Source of the DNA: an uncultured Rickettsiales bacterium
Lineage (GTDB): Bacteria > Myxococcota_A > UBA796 > UBA9615 > CAYRNR01
NCBI GenBank assembly: GCA_964504165.1
Contig: CAZDDH010000004.1
Span: 16,748 to 80,747, forward strand
Direction: 5' to 3'
Length of the DNA stretch: 64,000 nucleotides
The position numbers and the translations under genes were made by a program. Positions within the stretch are counted from its first letter, which is position 1; every line of letters begins with the position of its first letter. Positions 40,515 through 51,945 of the stretch are shown piece by piece. The notes under the pieces are model-generated. The model saw only the letters and a list, made by a program, of their open reading frames with translations, was not told the DNA's origin and did not search any database.

Positions 40515-41246
40515 ATGCAAGTCGATGAAATGGTTCGAGACCTGGTTATAGGCGGCATCGCCGCGCCAGCCGCTGTGGATGCGGGCGACGTTCCCGTAGC
40601 CGTCGGCGGCCTCAAACAAGCCATCGCCCAACGGATCCGCGCTGCAGGCATTCCCCGAGACGCCGCGGCCCGCCACCTGGGCGTGACCCCCCGGTCCATC
40701 TCTCGCTGGCTGCACGGCGACGAAGAGGGTGCGACCAACCCCAGGCGTCGTCAGCTGGAAGGCGAGATCATCGGCTTGCTCCGTGGCCGCTGCCCCGAGT
40801 CCCTGACGCGTCAAGAGATCCTCTGCCACCTGCTGGACCAGGACCTGGACTGCAGCCCCGACGAACTGCAGGGCGTGCTGGACCTCTACCTGGCCCTGGG
40901 GCAGGTGGAGAGCGCTGGTAAGTACCGCTACCGCGCCGCAGAGCGCTGCCGGATCCAGGCCACCCCCGAGCGGCCGGACACCCGCGGCCAGGCGGTCTAC
41001 AAGCGCATCCAGGCCATCCCGCGCCTGATTCGCGCGTACATTCGTGGTGAGAGTGGCGCCCGCGCCCCCATCTGCCGGATGAACATCCCGCCGGATCGTG
41101 TGGAGATTGTGGCCCAGAAGGTCACCGACGCGATCATGGATATCTACAATGAAGAAATGGAACGGGATGTCCCCACCGACAGCCCGCTGACTCCAATGAC
41201 ACTCTTCTTCATGTCGGCCCGCGGCTGGCATGGGGAACCGGAATAA
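40515..41246 (+). CDS. Hypothetical protein with a putative helix-turn-helix segment (AARHLGVTPRSISRWL).
   Basis: ATG with AGGAG RBS at 40505. The upstream part of the listed ORF overlaps gpmI. Confidence 0.5.
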   Translation: MQVDEMVRDLVIGGIAAPAAVDAGDVPVAVGGLKQAIAQRIRAAGIPRDAAARHLGVTPRSISRWLHGDEEGATNPRRRQLEGEIIGLLRGRCPESLTRQEILCHLLDQDLDCSPDELQGVLDLYLALGQVESAGKYRYRAAERCRIQATPERPDTRGQAVYKRIQAIPRLIRAYIRGESGARAPICRMNIPPDRVEIVAQKVTDAIMDIYNEEMERDVPTDSPLTPMTLFFMSARGWHGEPE

Positions 41247-45119: not shown

Positions 45120-45836
45120 ATGCTCGACCTCATCAAGACCACCGTAGCCCCTGTATTTGATCTGCTGGCTCCCGACCTGTGCCCCCTGTGCGGCGTTCCG
45201 GCCACCCCCCGACTCGGTGGCTGGTGCGAGACCTGCAGGGATGGTCTCCCGTGGCTCGACAGCTCGACATGCGCCATCTGCAACGAACCCCTGGGGCATG
45301 GTGGCGGATGTCCGTCCTGCCGTGCTGCCGGCCATCCGTGGACCGGCGTCGTGGCCGCGGTCGATTACAGCGGAGAGCTGCGTGACCTGCTCACCCGCTG
45401 GAAGTTCACGCCCACGACATCCTTTTCCCGTCCCCTCTCCGCGGTATTGCTGCGGTCCATCCCCCGGGGGCCCGGCGGCTGGGATCTGGTCGTCCCGGTC
45501 CCGCAGCGCGAGTCCGCCTGGCGTACCAGAGGATTCCACCCGGCTGGCGACCTGGCCCGGGCCGTCGCGCGGCAGGCCCAGCTGCCCATCTGCCAGCCGC
45601 TCGTCTGCCGTCGCGATGTCCAGCCTCAGGTGGGATTGACCGCTGTCCAGCGGCGACGTAACGTGGAGCGCCTTTTTCGCACGGGGCCGGCGTCCAGGCG
45701 CCTACCCGGGAAACGGCTGCTGCTGGTGGATGATGTGGTCACGACGACGGCCACCGCGGCAGCCTGTGCGGGCATCTTGCGGGATGCCGACGCAAGCTCC
45801 GTCACCGTGGCCGCCCTGGCGCGGGCCGCACCTTGA
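45120..45836 (+). CDS. comF: ComF-family protein: N-terminal Zn-ribbon plus a phosphoribosyltransferase domain.
   Basis: CPLCG...CETC...CAIC...CPSC and the PRTase motif LLVDDVVTTTAT. Confidence 0.8.
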   Translation: MLDLIKTTVAPVFDLLAPDLCPLCGVPATPRLGGWCETCRDGLPWLDSSTCAICNEPLGHGGGCPSCRAAGHPWTGVVAAVDYSGELRDLLTRWKFTPTTSFSRPLSAVLLRSIPRGPGGWDLVVPVPQRESAWRTRGFHPAGDLARAVARQAQLPICQPLVCRRDVQPQVGLTAVQRRRNVERLFRTGPASRRLPGKRLLLVDDVVTTTATAAACAGILRDADASSVTVAALARAAP

Positions 45837-45837
45837 G

Positions 45838-47118
45838 GTGAATGTGTACGAGATCCACCATCAGATCCTCGATGGCGGTCTACCAGCGCTCGTGCTCGTG
45901 CGCAATGGGCTCCACTCCCTGGATGTGAACCTGGTCGTGCGCGCAGGCCCTCGTTACGAGACCCCCGAAAACAACGGCCTGAGCCACATGGTGGAACACA
46001 TGCTCTTCCGGGGCACCCACCAGTACCCTAGTTCGCTGGATTTCCACGAAGCGGTGGAACAGATCGGCGGGCCGCTGATGGGCAGCACGGGGCGGGACAG
46101 CTCCTTGTACAGCCTGCTGGTCAGCCCCCGCGACCTGGCACCGGCGCTGGAGCTGTTGTCCGAAGCCACCTTGCGCCCGACCTTCTCCAACCTGGATCTG
46201 GAACGCAAACTGATCCTCGAAGAACTGCTCGAAGATCTGGACGAGGACGATCGAGACCTCAACCTGGAGCACATCAGCCGCAAGTTGATGTGGCCCAACG
46301 ATCCCGTCGGATTCTCCATCGTTGGCCAGCGCAGCAACGTGGAACGGTTCACCGTCGATGACATACGGGAACTCCACACCAGGCTGTACGTCACGGGCAA
46401 CGCCTTGCTGGTCGTGGCCGGGCCCGTCGATCCCGCCGAGTGCTTCGCCAGGGCATCCGCCTGTTTCGCAGACATGAACAGCGGCCCGGCGGCCAGCGCC
46501 CCCCCCATGCGTCCGGTCCGCCCCGGGCCCCACATTCACCACGTCGAACACGACGCCAGCCAGGTCGAGATGCTGCTCAGCTTCCCGGCGCCGGGTATCT
46601 TGCACCCGGATGCCCAGGGCATCGCCCTGATCCAGATGATCCTGGGAGACGGCGTCACATCCAGGCTGCAATGGAACATCTGCGAACAGCGGGCGCTGGC
46701 CTACACCATCGAAGCCCAGTACGAACCGCTGGACGATCTAGGGACCCTGGACATCGACGCCGCCGTCCATCCGGACCACTACCTGGAATTGGTACGGGAG
46801 GTGGTCAAGACCCTACGATTCCTCAAGGATCGTGGGCCCACGGCTGCCGAACTGGAGCGGGCCATTCGACGCTACCGGCTGGCCCTCGAGTTCGCCCTGG
46901 ACAGCCCCTCCGCCCTCGTCGCCTATCATATGGACGAGATCTACGGCATGCGGCGCTCCATCTCCCAGCGCCTGGAGACCCTCGATAGCTGGACCCCGAG
47001 GCGCCTGAGGGCGTTGTGCCGAGGGCTGTTGAAGCGCGCGGGAGCGACCCTGGTCACCGTGGGCCCCCTTGACACCCTTGCTGTCCGGCGCACCGAGCGA
47101 TTGCTCAGCCAGCTCTGA
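45838..47118 (+). CDS. M16 (pitrilysin) family zinc peptidase.
   Basis: HMVEHMLFRG (HxxEH). The GTG start lies 1 nt after the comF stop. Confidence 0.8.
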   Translation: MNVYEIHHQILDGGLPALVLVRNGLHSLDVNLVVRAGPRYETPENNGLSHMVEHMLFRGTHQYPSSLDFHEAVEQIGGPLMGSTGRDSSLYSLLVSPRDLAPALELLSEATLRPTFSNLDLERKLILEELLEDLDEDDRDLNLEHISRKLMWPNDPVGFSIVGQRSNVERFTVDDIRELHTRLYVTGNALLVVAGPVDPAECFARASACFADMNSGPAASAPPMRPVRPGPHIHHVEHDASQVEMLLSFPAPGILHPDAQGIALIQMILGDGVTSRLQWNICEQRALAYTIEAQYEPLDDLGTLDIDAAVHPDHYLELVREVVKTLRFLKDRGPTAAELERAIRRYRLALEFALDSPSALVAYHMDEIYGMRRSISQRLETLDSWTPRRLRALCRGLLKRAGATLVTVGPLDTLAVRRTERLLSQL

Positions 47119-47156
47119 CCCGTCCGGATTCCGGACACCCCGTCCGGATTCCGGAC
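47119..47156. promoter_or_regulatory. Two tandem copies, on a 20-bp period, of an 18-nt element containing the perfect 15-bp palindrome GTCCGGA-T-TCCGGAC. It lies between the M16 peptidase stop and the Hsp70 gene and is a candidate operator or tandem hairpin terminator.
   Basis: Read directly: cccgtccggattccggac ac cccgtccggattccggac. Confidence 0.6.
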
Positions 47157-47297
47157 CGTCGAGGCCCTCGTCAGCAGCGTCCCACACGCTCCAAACCGCA
47201 CGTTGACGGAGGGCAACGCCAGCCCTACCATGGAAACTGGCAGCAGCCGCGACGTTCATCATCAACCATCGGCTCAGACCTGAATCAAGGGGAAGGC

Positions 47298-48893
47298 ATG
47301 GCCCACGCAATTGGCATCGATCTGGGTACCTCCAACTCGGTGGTTTCCGTCATGCGAGACGGAATCCCAGTGGTCATTCCAGACGATGAAGGGAATCGGA
47401 TTCACCCCTCGGTGGTGACCTTTGGCTTCGGGGACTCGGTCCTGGTGGGGACCCAGGCCAGGGCACAGCTCCTGTACAACCCGACGAACACGATCTATTC
47501 GGCCAAGCGCCTCATCGGCCGCTCCATCTTCGCCGATGAAGTGACGAAGGCTCAGCAGTTCCTCCCGTACAAGCTCGTGGAGGGTCCCCACAACGACATC
47601 CGAGTTCAGGCGATGGAGCGGGAATTCTCCCTGCAAGAAATCTCGGCGTTCATCCTGCGTCACCTGCGCCAGGTCGCCGAGAACTACCTGGGGGAGACGG
47701 TGGAACAGGCGGTGGTCACCGTCCCGGCCTACTTCAACGACATGCAGCGGCAGGCGACCAAGGACGCCGGCTCTATCGCCGGCCTCGACGTGCTGCGCAT
47801 CATCAACGAGCCCACTGCGGCGGCCCTGGCCTACGGATTCGAGGCTGGCGTCAACAAGACCATCGGCGTCTATGACCTCGGTGGCGGTACCTTCGATATC
47901 TCCCTGCTGCGCATCACCGGCGACGTCTACGAGGTGGTCTCCACCGCAGGCGACACCTACCTGGGTGGCGACGATTTCGACCTGTCCATCGTCGAACATC
48001 TGCTCAGCGGATTCTCGGACGCAGAGAAGGCCGGGATCATCAACAATCACGCGGTCGTCCAGCGGCTCAAGCGGGCCGCCGAGGACGCCAAGATCGCCCT
48101 GTCGCTGCGGCCCGAGTCCAGCATCCATGTCCAGGGTGTGGTCAAGGACGAGCGCGGGTTCGATCGCGATCTGTCCACCACGCTCAATCAGACCCAGTTC
48201 CACAAGCTCGTGTATCCGCTGGTGGCACGCACCTTCCAGGTATGCGACGAGGCGCTGCGGGAAGCCAAGCTCAATCCCGGCGAGCTCGAGGCCGTCGTAT
48301 TGGTGGGCGGCATGACCCGTTCACCGCTGATCCAGGAGGCGGTCTCGACCTATTTTGGCCACACCCCAGAAGCTGGCATCAACCCGGACGAGGTGGTGGC
48401 TGTCGGTGCTGCGATCCAGGCCCATAGTCTGGCCGGCGCTGCCGCCGCTCTCACCGCGCCAGCCGGTGCCCCCGAAGCCCAGCCCAGCGCCCTGCTCATC
48501 GACGTGACCCCCCAGTCGCTGAGCGTTGCCACCGTCAGTGGCTATGTGGAACGCCTCATCGAGCGCAACACGCCGATTCCCACCGGTATCGCCCGCGCCT
48601 TCACCACCAGCACCGACGGTCAGGAAGAGGTGCGCATCGCCGTATACCAGGGCGAGAGCCGGATGGCCGATGACAACGAGATGCTCGGGGAGTTCGTCCT
48701 CGGTGGGCTACGCCCCGCCGCGCGTGGTGAGCTGAAGATCCAGGTCAATTTCGACATCGATGCCAACGGCATCGTGCATGTCACAGCCGAGGACATGGAG
48801 ACGCGCCGATCGCGCTCCATCGACATCCAGGCATCGACTGCACTGACGGAAGACGAGATCGACGAGATGAAGTTTGATAACTTGGAGTTCTGA
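47298..48893 (+). CDS. Hsp70-family chaperone, a short form (531 aa) lacking the C-terminal lid/EEVD region.
   Basis: IGIDLGTSNSVVSV, DLGGGTFD, IDVTPQSL. The protein ends shortly after the beta-sandwich substrate-binding domain. Confidence 0.85.
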   Translation: MAHAIGIDLGTSNSVVSVMRDGIPVVIPDDEGNRIHPSVVTFGFGDSVLVGTQARAQLLYNPTNTIYSAKRLIGRSIFADEVTKAQQFLPYKLVEGPHNDIRVQAMEREFSLQEISAFILRHLRQVAENYLGETVEQAVVTVPAYFNDMQRQATKDAGSIAGLDVLRIINEPTAAALAYGFEAGVNKTIGVYDLGGGTFDISLLRITGDVYEVVSTAGDTYLGGDDFDLSIVEHLLSGFSDAEKAGIINNHAVVQRLKRAAEDAKIALSLRPESSIHVQGVVKDERGFDRDLSTTLNQTQFHKLVYPLVARTFQVCDEALREAKLNPGELEAVVLVGGMTRSPLIQEAVSTYFGHTPEAGINPDEVVAVGAAIQAHSLAGAAAALTAPAGAPEAQPSALLIDVTPQSLSVATVSGYVERLIERNTPIPTGIARAFTTSTDGQEEVRIAVYQGESRMADDNEMLGEFVLGGLRPAARGELKIQVNFDIDANGIVHVTAEDMETRRSRSIDIQASTALTEDEIDEMKFDNLEF

Positions 48894-48918
48894 CTCGACA
48901 GACACTCGGAGCGGATAG

Positions 48919-49497
48919 ATGCCCGACGAACTGGACCTGCGAACCCGCGTGGAGATCGAAACCCTCCACGAATTCCTGGATGAAATATCGTTCTACGCGT
49001 TGCTCCAGCTGCCGGAGACCGCTTCCCGTGACGATATCGAGTTCGCCTTTGCCCAGGAATCCCGCAAGTTCCATCCGGATCGGTTCTTCGGTGTGCGCAA
49101 TCCCCAATTCCTGCGCAACCTCACCGCCATCTACCGCAAGATCTCCGAGGCCCACTCGGTCCTCAAGGATCCAGACCTGAAATCCCGCTACGACCAGAAG
49201 CTGGGCATCACCGGTGCGGCGGGAGGCGAAGACATCTCCAAGGCGGGCCTGGTACAGGAATCTGAGATGGAGGAGAAGGCCCAGCGTATCGTCTGTTCGA
49301 GCCGGCAAGGGCGTCGCTACTACGACCTGGCCATGACCGCCAGGCGGGCCAACGACCTCACCGGAGTCGTGATGAACCTCCAGTTCGCCCTGAGCTTCGA
49401 GGCCGCCAACGAGACCCTCCAGGAAATGCTGGCCCAGGCCAAAACCGATCTCGACAAGCTGAAGGCCAAGGAGAACCTCAAGGTTCGTATGTATTAG
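48919..49497 (+). CDS. J-domain protein (HPD motif) without Zn-finger or DnaJ C-terminal domains.
   Basis: FYALLQLPETASRDDIEFAFAQESRKFHPDRF. 192 aa. Confidence 0.75.
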   Translation: MPDELDLRTRVEIETLHEFLDEISFYALLQLPETASRDDIEFAFAQESRKFHPDRFFGVRNPQFLRNLTAIYRKISEAHSVLKDPDLKSRYDQKLGITGAAGGEDISKAGLVQESEMEEKAQRIVCSSRQGRRYYDLAMTARRANDLTGVVMNLQFALSFEAANETLQEMLAQAKTDLDKLKAKENLKVRMY

Positions 49498-50066
49498 TGC
49501 TCAAGTTGGCCACCCACCGCCCATGTCACCGCCGCATCTCGGCCCCAGCCCTGATCCCGTTTTTGGGACTGGCATTGATGTGGGCCGGCTGCGGGCCGGG
49601 ATCCCCCTCCCCCTACACGCCCGAGAAGGGCAGCGGAGAACTCCAGGCCATCATCGAGTTGGGGGAGGACGGCGGCACGCCATTCCTCGCCAGCGAATGC
49701 CACGCGGCCATCTACTCCCGCGGTACACACACGGATCTGGTCATCCATGCCGGTAGCGACCTGAGCCAGGATGCGGAACGGCTTGCCCTGGCGATGGTCC
49801 TCGACCTGACGGATCCAGCACTCCCCGGCACCATCGACCTGAGCAAGCACGGCGTCCTGCTGATGCAGCTGGACCGCGCAGGGGAGGCCCAGTTGGTGGT
49901 GGACGAAGATCCGCAGGGGACGGCCGAGATCCTCGGTACCCTGGAGCCTGGCCACGAGATCAATGGCACCTTCGGGCTGGAGCTGCACGGGCTGGATGAG
50001 CTGGGGATACGGATGTCGGCCCGGATCGACGGATCGTTCGCGGCGCTGATCGAACCCGCCCTCTAA
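49497..50066 (+). CDS. Hypothetical lipoprotein. Its GTG start overlaps the J-protein stop (TAGTG).
   Basis: Lipobox LGLALMWAGC. Confidence 0.55.
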   Translation: MLKLATHRPCHRRISAPALIPFLGLALMWAGCGPGSPSPYTPEKGSGELQAIIELGEDGGTPFLASECHAAIYSRGTHTDLVIHAGSDLSQDAERLALAMVLDLTDPALPGTIDLSKHGVLLMQLDRAGEAQLVVDEDPQGTAEILGTLEPGHEINGTFGLELHGLDELGIRMSARIDGSFAALIEPAL

Positions 50067-50092: not shown

Positions 50093-50530
50093 TCACCGTT
50101 CGATCACCAAGGTCACCGGCCCGTCGTTGACCAGATCCACGTGCATATGGGCGCCAAAAACACCACAACCGACCCGGATCCCCTCCCCCCTCAGGACCTC
50201 CGCCACGCGATCCACCAGCGGTTCCGCCTCCTCCGGCCGGGCGGCGGCGACAAAGGATGGCCGCCGTCCTTTCCGGCAATCCCCCAGCAGGGTGAACTGG
50301 CTGACCACCAGGACCTCCCCATCGACGTCGGCAACGGAGCGGTTCATTCGCCCTTGTTCATCCTCAAAAATACGCAGCCCGCCGAGCTTGCGGGCCACCC
50401 AGTCCGCCTGCTCCGTACGGTCGCCTTGTGCCACTCCGACCAGCACCAGCAACCCCCGCCCGATAGCGGCGACCTCGTCACCGGCGACCACGACCCTGCT
50501 AGATGTCACCCGCTGAACCACGATACGCAC
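50093..50530 (-). CDS. dtd: D-aminoacyl-tRNA deacylase.
   Basis: VRIVVQRV..., SQFTLLGD and the C-terminal NDGPVT motif. GTG start with GGAGGAGG RBS. Confidence 0.85.
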
Positions 50531-50667
50531 CCTGAAACCTCCTCCTGCCCGGTTATTCCACCGGGCTCGACGCCAGGGAAACAACTCCCTGTGATAGAAT
50601 GCGCGCAAATGAATCCAGGGAAAAGTGGGCCTCAGAAAAGAGCTCACCACAGGTAGTTCGGACCCAC

Positions 50668-51945
50668 ATGAGCGATGTAAAACCACTCGATGATCTTCTG
50701 GAAGAGCTAGAAAATCTACCAGACCTCGATGACGAGGAAGAGTCGAATTCCGCCGCCGGATTCATCCAGCAGCAGATCAACTACCGGGAATACCCCGTCC
50801 TCGTCGTGGACGACGAGGAGGAAAACCTCCTCGCGTTCCAGCTGAATTTCCGCCACGACTTCTTGCTGGACACCGCCATCAGCGCCGCGGATGCCCTCAC
50901 CCTGCTCACCAAGAAGGAGTACGCGGTGGTGGTCACCGACCAGCGTATGCCGGGCATGACCGGCGTCGAGCTGCTGGAAAAGACGGTCGACCTGTACCCC
51001 CAGCTGATCCGCATCATCGTCACCGGTTACACGGACAACCAGAGCCTCATCGACGCCATCAACATGGGGCGCATCTACAAGTACATCACCAAGCCGTGGG
51101 CCCGCAACGACATGTCGGTGACCATCAAGCGGGCCATCGAGGCGTACCGCCTGGCCAAGGAGAACGACCGCCTACTGCGGGAGCTCAAGAGCAAGAACGA
51201 GGAGCTGGAGGCCAAGGTCGAGGAGCGCACGCGCAAGCTGCGCGAGGCCAACACCAAGCTGCACCAACTGGCCATCACCGATGGCCTGACGGGCCTGTTC
51301 AACCACCGCTACTTCCAGGAGAAGTGGCGGGAGGAGATCAAGCGCTCCGAACGCTACGGTGAGCCCGTGTCCCTGATCATCATGGACGTGGACAACTTCA
51401 AGAACTACAACGACCGGCGCGGTCATCCCCAGGGGGATGTGCTGTTGCGTGACCTGGCCATGCTGCTGGAACAGAGCTGCCGCGAGGTGGATGTGGTCTC
51501 CCGCTACGGGGGCGAAGAATTTGCCATCATCCTGCCCCGCACCGGCAAGCCCGATTCCGCGCGCCTGGCCGAACGGATCCGCGCCCGCATCGAGGACTCC
51601 CCGTTCCCGCACCGGGAGGTCCAGCCGGGCAAACGCCTGACCTGCTCGTTCGGGCTGGCCGCCTTCCCCGAGGACGGTGCCACCGCCTCGACGGTCCTGG
51701 AACGGTCCGATCAGGCGCTCTATGCCGCCAAGCAGGGAGGCCGCAATCAGGTCGTCGTGTACCAGCCCGGCCTTCCGATGCCGTCCCCCGACTCTCCCGT
51801 GGTCACGAGCTCCGATATCCCAGGGGGTTCCACGTCCGGCGACCCCGAAGATTACGCGGACGGCGACGGCGCCAAATCCGAGGACTCACTGTTCGACGAT
51901 CTGCCGTCCAGTGCCATCGACATGATCGAGCCCAAAGACAAGTAG
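50668..51945 (+). CDS. Response-regulator receiver plus GGDEF diguanylate cyclase.
   Basis: The REC domain ([11 protein letters not shown]...D) is followed by a coiled-coil and GGDEF (RYGGEEF). An alternative start lies at 50599. Confidence 0.85.

Follow-up and report, generated by a model that had tools for sequence, protein, structure and literature searches.

HrcA and HspR are dimeric repressors that bind inverted repeats beside chaperone operons, namely the controlling inverted repeat of chaperone expression (CIRCE) and the HspR-associated inverted repeat (HAIR), the latter often in more than one copy; both elements overlap or follow the promoter, and their repressors occlude RNA polymerase. 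Two-site operators upstream of the promoter are known from LysR-type regulators, whose recognition and activation binding sites (RBS/ABS pairs) carry a T-N11-A core, and from the paired sites of MarR- and IclR-type regulators. On the protein side, HscA/HscB and HscC/DjlB-DjlC represent specialised bacterial Hsp70s with dedicated J-proteins (PMC8215388). HscC comprises 550-580 amino acids, lacks DnaK residues 76-101 in the nucleotide-binding domain (NBD), carries an L1,2 insertion in SBD-beta, the beta part of the domain for substrate binding, and has the tail-anchored partners DjlB/DjlC (PMC8215388). DnaK “derivates” with shortened or deleted lids form a class of unknown function in Myxococcales (PMC13580251), and the Hsp70 inventory of M. 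xanthus has been reported (PMC8265645). Here, we analyzed a stretch of 64,000 nucleotides (in the following: the window; contig CAZDDH010000004.1, positions 16,748 to 80,747 of the forward strand) from the assembly GCA_964504165.1 of an “uncultured Rickettsiales bacterium,” in which two palindromes are located between a gene for an M16-family peptidase and an operon for a short Hsp70, a small J-domain protein (JDP), and a lipoprotein. With somewhat more confidence than doubt, we read the two palindromes as a dual operator, which would be recognised by a dimeric or tetrameric regulator of the helix-turn-helix (HTH) type and would control the sigma-70-type promoter of the operon.

The TGA stop codon of the M16 gene (47116-47118) is followed by cccGTCCGGATTCCGGAC (47119-47136), the dinucleotide “ac,” and a second cccGTCCGGATTCCGGAC (47139-47156), whereby dyad 1 begins 3 nt past the stop codon. 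Each GTCCGGATTCCGGAC core forms a perfect 7-1-7 palindrome, and the two follow each other at a period of exactly 20 bp. When up to two mismatches were allowed, GTCCGGATTCCGGAC yielded four strand-matches in the 64-kb window, all of them from the two dyads, compared to 0.53 expected (0 of 100 shuffles reached 4), and the degenerate tandem GNCCG-N5-CGGNC at 20 bp was found once compared to 0.05 expected. Thus, the two perfect palindromes at a distance of 20 bp behind the M16 stop codon, which had been noticed in a first-pass annotation of the window, were confirmed both in the sequence and in the mismatch scan. Their dissimilarity to CIRCE and HAIR, also claimed there, was borne out as well, since the window contains no match to CIRCE (TTAGCACTC-N9-GAGTGCTAA) at up to three mismatches and only two matches to HAIR (CTTGAGT-N7-ACTCAAG) at three mismatches, which is at chance level (1.17 expected) and outside the spacer in both cases. 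A literature search with the dyad string retrieved no paper. The window sequence belongs to a metagenome contig of 125 kb (JGI 3300009008, Ga0115649_1000345), and the spacer is identical in a second assembly. The perfect palindromes and the identical copies are peculiar to the window genome, whereas the copies of its relatives are imperfect. The two 20-nt units agree at 18 of 20 nt in the window and likewise in one of these relatives (L153; related loci are given by L numbers), which points to an occasional homogenisation of the two units, and such a homogenisation would explain the perfect tandem repeat seen in the window.

The M16-hsp70 spacers of 12 dyad-bearing species, all related uncultured marine bacteria (the window and L025, L003, L004, L005, L008, L009, L152, L153, L154, L028, and L030), were aligned (alignment A3). 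Both dyads are present in 12 of 12 spacers of this closest clade, whereby 10 species show a period of 20 bp and two (L004, L152) one of 21 bp. The consensus is G[T/G]CCG-(A/T-rich N5)-CG[G/A]NC; G1, C3, G5, C11, G12, and C15 occur in all 24 sites and C4 in 23 of them, and the central five bases are A/T-rich. The conserved arms around an A/T-rich centre therefore have their centres ~10 bp, or about one helical turn, apart, as at dimer sites of HTH proteins. Invariant columns of A3 form four islands, which are dyad 1, dyad 2, TTGACG, and TAC.AT, and the remainder has diverged. Within the 12 species, Hsp70 is 70-95% identical to the window protein, the identity of the M16 peptidase is ~60%, and that of the flanking proteins is only ~60-79%. 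In L025, the closest relative, the dyads are kept though the flanks on both sides are non-homologous to the window, with a 31-bp insertion upstream of the dyads and a spacing to the -35 hexamer of 26 bp compared to 46 bp in the window. In the seven species measured, 2 to 34 nt lie between the M16 stop codon and the dyads. In L003 the spacer contains a run of 10 N (4137-4146), which is either a masked stretch or an assembly gap. Against this background it is hardly conceivable that the repeat arose by neutral tandem duplication of 20 bp and has no function: the near-identity of the units in the window and L153 does show a recent homogenisation or slippage, but 12 diverged species have kept period and core bases next to a spacer that was scrambled, and Hsp70 identities as low as those given above (70-95% to the window protein) do not come from near-identical strains.

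Behind the dyads, the promoter TTGACG-N17/18-TAC(G/C)AT is present in 12 of 12 species, whereby no variation occurs in the -35 hexamer or at the -10 positions T, A, C, A, and T. A gap of 10-46 bp separates the dyads from the -35 hexamer downstream, without any overlap with the promoter. Dyad 2 has its centre 18-54 bp 5' of the -35 start (~-55 to -90) and dyad 1 lies 20 bp further up; the predicted dyad positions are ~-90 and -110 in the window genome and ~-55 to -100 in the relatives. As would be expected for an operator, a sequence-conserved dyad thus occupies a fixed place relative to the promoter in all 12 orthologous loci, with the distance to the -35 hexamer varying by 36 bp. In one sub-group the centre-to--35 values cluster at 32-34, 43-45, and 54, which hints at helical phasing. 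Such a phasing was considered for the whole clade, where gaps of 24, 35, and 46 bp were striking at first but not significant over the 12 species. In the sub-clade of L008, L153, L154, L030, and L028, a short G+C-rich inverted repeat, absent from the window, directly follows the -10 element (A3 columns ~140-165) and lies at the start of the predicted 5' untranslated region.

In the window, the two copies can also pair with each other to a stem of 14 bp closed by a loop of 5 nt (-30.6 kcal/mol, z -6.7; z -4.1 for the 201-nt region). It might be that the repeat acts as a stem-loop of RNA or DNA where the ComF-M16 transcript has its 3' end, that is, as a terminator without U-tract or as a stabiliser by which the Hsp70 promoter would be shielded from read-through. 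This would be in line with the start of the repeat directly behind the M16 stop codon, with the strong hairpins in L025, L004, and L030 (the latter with copies that are exact reverse complements), and with the confinement of the dyads to the clade in which M16 is inserted between comF and hsp70. However, folding energy is not conserved: it reaches -35.9 kcal/mol in L030, but only -19.0 (z -0.7) in L005, -13.9 in L008, and -8.3 (z -0.8) in L153, where two identical, poorly palindromic direct copies give a weak fold. The G+C-rich hairpin of the window is not followed by a U-tract (a T-run in the DNA), a terminator scan gave no site, and a search of Rfam gave no match. Pairing within A3 was 85.4% for two small hairpins compared to 85.1% in shuffled alignments (239/500) and 81.1% compared to 79.6% for one long hairpin (116/500), the covariation of the two models was reached or exceeded in 264 and 84 of 500 column shuffles, respectively, and 5 of 12 sequences show no pair at the variable positions 2/14. 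Furthermore, the stem sequence is kept at ~60% protein identity, which is unusual for terminators, and the distance from stop codon to repeat varies (2-34 nt in the seven species). Altogether, the repeat resembles neither an intrinsic terminator nor a structured RNA, and we regard the stem-loop as an unlikely explanation. What is kept appears to be base identity in a dyad-symmetric pattern and not pairing, as would be typical for a protein-recognised site, and this favours a dual operator over a hairpin. The first-pass annotation had named both options, and its two dimer sites on one face of the DNA fit the comparative data, i.e., the conservation in 12 species and the lack of covariation, better than its paired hairpins.

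A position weight matrix built from the 24 dyads was used to scan 234 kb from 15 loci of the clade. It recovered all 24 dyads at 12.8-23.6 bits and elsewhere only one match within this range (13.7 bits). In ~82 kb of the source contig no further copy of GTCCGGATTCCGGAC was detected, and the 18 kb by which this exceeds the window added no strong dyad; within this sequence, the search for further sites, by which the first-pass annotation wanted to define a regulon, thus led to none beyond the locus. It had also proposed to abandon its reading if the palindrome occurred nowhere else and was not conserved; the first half of this holds for the ~82 kb, whereas the orthologous spacers of 12 species do keep the dyads. 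The same data make it very unlikely that the repeat is a dispersed repetitive extragenic palindrome (REP) or the relic of a mobile element without any role specific to Hsp70. Like REPs or bacterial interspersed mosaic elements (BIMEs), it is palindromic, extragenic, tandem, and situated just past a stop codon, and similar arrangements were found upstream of an IS91-family transposase gene (tandem 15-mer, L062) and in an iteron-like array (L108), but a dispersed element would not be expected at the orthologous position in 12 species with a single 13.7-bit match outside the locus in 234 kb and none in the extra 18 kb, and no RAYT or transposase gene occurs in the neighbourhood.

Scanning of metagenomes for the exact 15-mer gave at least 120 matches. 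Among the matches listed, most are single and presumably chance matches from unrelated environments, without indication of a regulon, and a partner dyad at exactly ±20 bp was present in 4 of 237 tests compared to a background of 0.0016 per test. As tandem dyads at 20 bp recur in unrelated contigs, this suggests a recurring protein-DNA geometry. The tandem dyads are located in L048 (10612-10666, three copies in phase), L062 (1279-1313, upstream of the IS91-family Y2 transposase gene), L058 (1913-1947), and L046 (642-676, between divergent GGDEF and response-regulator genes). A common regulator was not found beside these pairs, which are accompanied by GGDEF and response-regulator genes, an IS91 transposase, Rpn-like proteins, and an SRP54 neighbourhood. 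The unrelated contig L108 (61% GC) contains at least five TGTCCGGAWWTCCGGACA-like repeats (3800-4130) with a period of ~23 bp for the first two; this iteron-like array overlaps a minus-strand open reading frame (ORF) whose N-terminus looks HTH-like by eye only.

From the sites and the way they are conserved, as well as from the promoter and the genes, all of which were directly observed, we infer binding by a protein together with its stoichiometry and the direction of the regulation, as follows. Because the centres of the two dyad-symmetric sites are two helical turns apart, four half-sites would be exposed on one side of the DNA. These would be bound by a candidate HTH-type regulator in the form of either two dimers or one tetramer, and the bound regulator would modulate transcription of the lid-less Hsp70/small J-protein/lipoprotein operon. 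Since the dyads are located upstream of the -35 hexamer without overlap, as is usual for sites of activators or of upstream control, we lean slightly towards activation or another upstream-binding control rather than simple occlusion. The strong 14-bp hairpin in the M16 transcript would be a mere by-product of the identical copies in the window. The operator that the first-pass annotation had assigned to the module is thus still the best-supported reading, whereas an operator in the sense of a repressor site gains no support from dyads that end 10-46 bp above the -35 hexamer. Several points weigh against a dual operator. No regulator gene was found in or near the locus, and no second target in ~82 kb of the source genome, so that there is no evidence for a regulon. 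The distance of dyad 2 to the -35 hexamer varies between 10 and 46 bp, with phasing that is not significant (Rayleigh p 0.07-0.43). The core promoter is already near consensus, and therefore the need for an activator is not obvious. Finally, the hairpin is very stable in four species (window, L025, L004, and L030), and copy 2 of L030, as exact reverse complement of copy 1, is also compatible with a structural role. The probability left over by the explanations weighed here we assign to others outside this set. The features of the locus are summarised in Table 1.

Table 1. Positions of the dyads, the promoter, and the genes of the short-hsp70 locus in the window.
Feature	Position	Strand	Remarks
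Dyad 1, GTCCGGATTCCGGAC	47122..47136	.	20-bp repeat unit 47119-47138; homologous dyad in 12 species
Dyad 2, GTCCGGATTCCGGAC	47142..47156	.	repeat unit 47139-47158; centre 54 bp 5' of -35 hexamer start
Sigma-70-type promoter TTGACG-N17-TACCAT	47203..47231	+	1 found vs 0.1 expected; conserved in 12 species
Shine-Dalgarno-like AAGGGGAAGG	47287..47296	+	ends one base before the Hsp70 ATG; read from sequence
Lid-less DnaK-type Hsp70, 531 aa	47298..48893	+	NBD, linker, SBD-beta, start of helix A; C-terminal tail ...DEIDEMKFDNLEF
Class C J-domain protein, 192 aa	48919..49497	+	HPD motif and C-terminal three-helix bundle
Putative lipoprotein	49497..50066	+	signal peptide ends ...LMWAG|C; mature part predicted small beta-barrel
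M16-family zinc peptidase, HxxEH present	45784..47118	+	Pfam Peptidase_M16 and Peptidase_M16_C

The Hsp70 protein matches positions 1-513 of the 599 positions of the Pfam HSP70 profile and aligns to residues 2-518 of E. coli DnaK, where the alignment stops inside lid helix A. Within the NBD, the alignment to DnaK-type Hsp70s is unbroken over query residues 4-210. On the NCBIfam DnaK equivalog NF001413 the protein scores 633 bits (profile positions 1-510 of 625), which is below the cut-off of 648, and on the HscA equivalog TIGR01991 it scores 527 with a cut-off of 708. Relative to DnaK and mortalin, it shows a 13-amino-acid Ala/Pro-rich insertion (residues ~388-401, window 48460-48500) before the linker ..ALLIDVTP... 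Read from start to stop, 25 of 26 orthologues end at 520-553 amino acids with a common C-terminal motif, and the exception, L019, stops at 149 amino acids, probably due to a frameshift or an assembly error. Without a lid, with a score below the NF001413 cut-off, and with orthologues of this length, the protein is not a canonical DnaK. The orthologue lengths also rule out that a full-length DnaK would appear after correction of indels, as had been raised as an objection in the first-pass annotation. Among the best 120 database matches, 117 have 472-557 amino acids (the shortest being partial) and three are longer (610, 744, and 868). Because its relatives are nearly all short and share the C-terminal motif, the comparison indicates that the absence of the lid goes back to the ancestor of a large family and did not arise from faulty assembly. 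The conserved tail of the short Hsp70s (window 48840-48893) is acidic-hydrophobic and reads ...DE(I/V)(D/E)(D/E)(M/L)(K/R)FD(N/E)(L/I)xF-COOH, and the signature of the family is ...(K/R)FDxΦxF-COOH. The tail takes the same position in 24 further loci (from the set L003-L023, L025, L028, L030, L152-L154, and L158), whereby L011, L012, and L018 extend beyond it and L019 is truncated. It may recall the eukaryotic EEVD motif in role, but not in sequence.

In the J-protein, Pfam DnaJ matches residues 25-92 only; the FHPD motif is invariant among the orthologues, whereas a glycine/phenylalanine (G/F) region, a Zn finger, and the client-binding C-terminal domains of DnaJ are missing, which makes it a class C JDP. 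An AlphaFold model (pLDDT, i.e., predicted local distance difference test, 79) is all-helical and soluble-looking, with a C-terminal three-helix bundle, and its whole-length structural likeness is to HscB only, where it concerns the J-domain-plus-bundle layout at high root-mean-square deviation. It was considered that the C-terminal half might be a DNA-binding domain for autoregulation, but this was rejected because the model shows a helical bundle and no DNA-binding match was obtained. Residues ~128-192 (window 49300-49497) contain the conserved bundle motif VMN(L/I)QFAL. The C-terminal tail is basic-hydrophobic (KVRMY, FKVRLR, or NPYKIKIV); it resembles a DnaK-binding peptide and may serve as a pseudo-substrate or docking element. 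The GTG start codon of the lipoprotein gene shares 1 nt with the TAG stop codon of the J gene (TAGTG). As judged by eye, all 14 lipoprotein orthologues with a visible N-terminus show [AGS][GAS]C behind a hydrophobic stretch, a tally that covers 14 of 17 orthologues with L003, L004, and L009 outside it. The protein-level part of the first-pass annotation has thus held up well: the 531-amino-acid Hsp70 without lid agrees with the Pfam coverage and the DnaK alignment, the 192-amino-acid J-protein without Zn finger or client-binding domains with the restricted Pfam match, and the lipoprotein gene overlapping the J gene with the TAGTG junction and the conserved lipobox cysteine. Its notion of a dedicated non-canonical Hsp70/J module gains support from the adjacency of short Hsp70 and small JDP in 23 of 24 related loci (two copies of the source contig excluded).

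The exception among these loci is L024, where the Hsp70 lies ~1 kb downstream of a protein that matches the J-domain only. Database searches with the J-protein gave 62 relatives, and a scan of species-representative genomes led to 22 loci, all from uncultured metagenome-assembled genomes (MAGs) labelled Deltaproteobacteria, Myxococcota, or, probably wrongly, Rickettsiales; in 21 of the 22 an Hsp70 of 523-553 amino acids is encoded immediately upstream of the J gene. The closest clade shows the order comF-M16-hsp70-J-lipoprotein-dtd(-)-RR/GGDEF (RR, response regulator), whereas in a more distant clade comF directly precedes hsp70, without M16 or lipoprotein gene. A family member with ~53% Hsp70 identity is again followed by a 190-amino-acid JDP. 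Thus, the short-Hsp70/J pair constitutes a large family in MAGs of Myxococcota, with the dyads confined to one sub-clade. Many module-bearing MAGs (within L003-L020) are titled “uncultured Rickettsiales bacterium” despite 60-72% G+C and Myxococcota-type genes, and for this reason the title is probably a taxonomic mislabel. As the first-pass annotation had suggested checking for a nearby grpE, the gene table was inspected; neither grpE nor hrcA nor hspR is present within 10 kb on either side, the window contains no further gene for an Hsp70 or a J-domain protein, and the gene table lists no isc genes. The M16 gene starts at 45730 as longest ORF and at 45784 or 45844 according to gene callers. 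The only gene of DNA-binding type nearby, without any link to the dyads, lies ~6 kb upstream between iPGM and rplU (40515-41246, +); it encodes a conserved 243-amino-acid protein with a weak HTH_23/HTH_28 match and is syntenic in L025, L028, and L153. Downstream of the operon, the longest ORFs for a D-Tyr-tRNA deacylase (50093-50686, -) and a response-regulator/GGDEF protein (50599-51945, +) overlap head-to-head, whereby gene callers start both later (132-145 and 425 amino acids, respectively). Synteny of the latter gene with the operon extends over the whole close clade.

Myxococcota contain many lid-less Hsp70 paralogues, and what these do is acknowledged to be an open question (PMC13580251). 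The locus offers a clean and widely conserved case, consisting of a two-gene core, a clade-specific third gene, and a cis-element of a single clade, which could be used as a bait for the regulator and, via the regulator, for the inducing signal. If the system were stress-responsive, it would represent a new regulatory route, because the cis-element matches no known heat-shock operator. As all organisms are uncultured, its value is that of a lead and not of a finished result. A far-reaching version would combine a new operator and its regulator with a self-contained, GrpE-independent chaperone machine, in which a tail-docked Hsp70 and an HscB-like J-protein serve one dedicated client. The docking tails would be ...KFDNLxF-COOH of the Hsp70 and ...NPYKIKIV or KVRMY-COOH of the JDP, and the client might be the co-encoded LpqH-like lipoprotein or envelope traffic. 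Taken as a whole, we judge this combination to be distinctly improbable; if true, HscA/HscB and HscC/DjlC would be joined by a third kind of bacterial Hsp70 system devoted to a single purpose.

Compared with known regulatory elements, the dyads are similar to CIRCE and HAIR in being an inverted-repeat element beside a chaperone operon, here in two copies, but they differ by an unrelated sequence, by their location 10-46 bp above the -35 hexamer, and by the absence of hrcA and hspR within 10 kb. With the operators of LysR-, MarR-, and IclR-type regulators they share, in geometry alone, a pair of dyads that lie upstream of the promoter on one face, separated by about two helical turns, and the dyad core TCCGG-N3-CCGGA fits the LysR-type T-N11-A; however, a divergent or adjacent regulator gene is missing, and the proximal site stops short of the -35 hexamer in most species. 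Like HscA/HscB and HscC/DjlC, the locus encodes an Hsp70 paralogue together with a small class C JDP of its own and has no grpE nearby, whereby the JDP is similar to HscB in size and layout (J-domain and C-terminal three-helix bundle) without sequence match to it. It differs from HscA, since the DnaK model is preferred (633 bits compared to 527 for HscA with its cut-off of 708) and isc genes are absent. In the comparison with HscC, which was made by description, the NBD residues missing there are present here, the protein has 531 amino acids, and the JDP is not tail-anchored. Both HscA and HscC keep shortened lids, whereas the Hsp70 of the window has none. The minimal Hsp70 named in the first-pass annotation is not a novel kind of gene, because lid-less DnaK derivatives have already been described in Myxococcales (PMC13580251); the fixed JDP pairing, the conserved tails, the lipoprotein partner, and the clade-specific double dyad were not found described in the literature. 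At class level, the protein resembles these derivatives in its occurrence in high-GC genomes of Myxococcota type and in the intact NBD, linker, and beta-basket with a deleted lid, but is set apart from them by its fixed partners, which are the JDP and, in some clades, the lipoprotein, and by its C-terminal (K/R)FDxΦxF tail.

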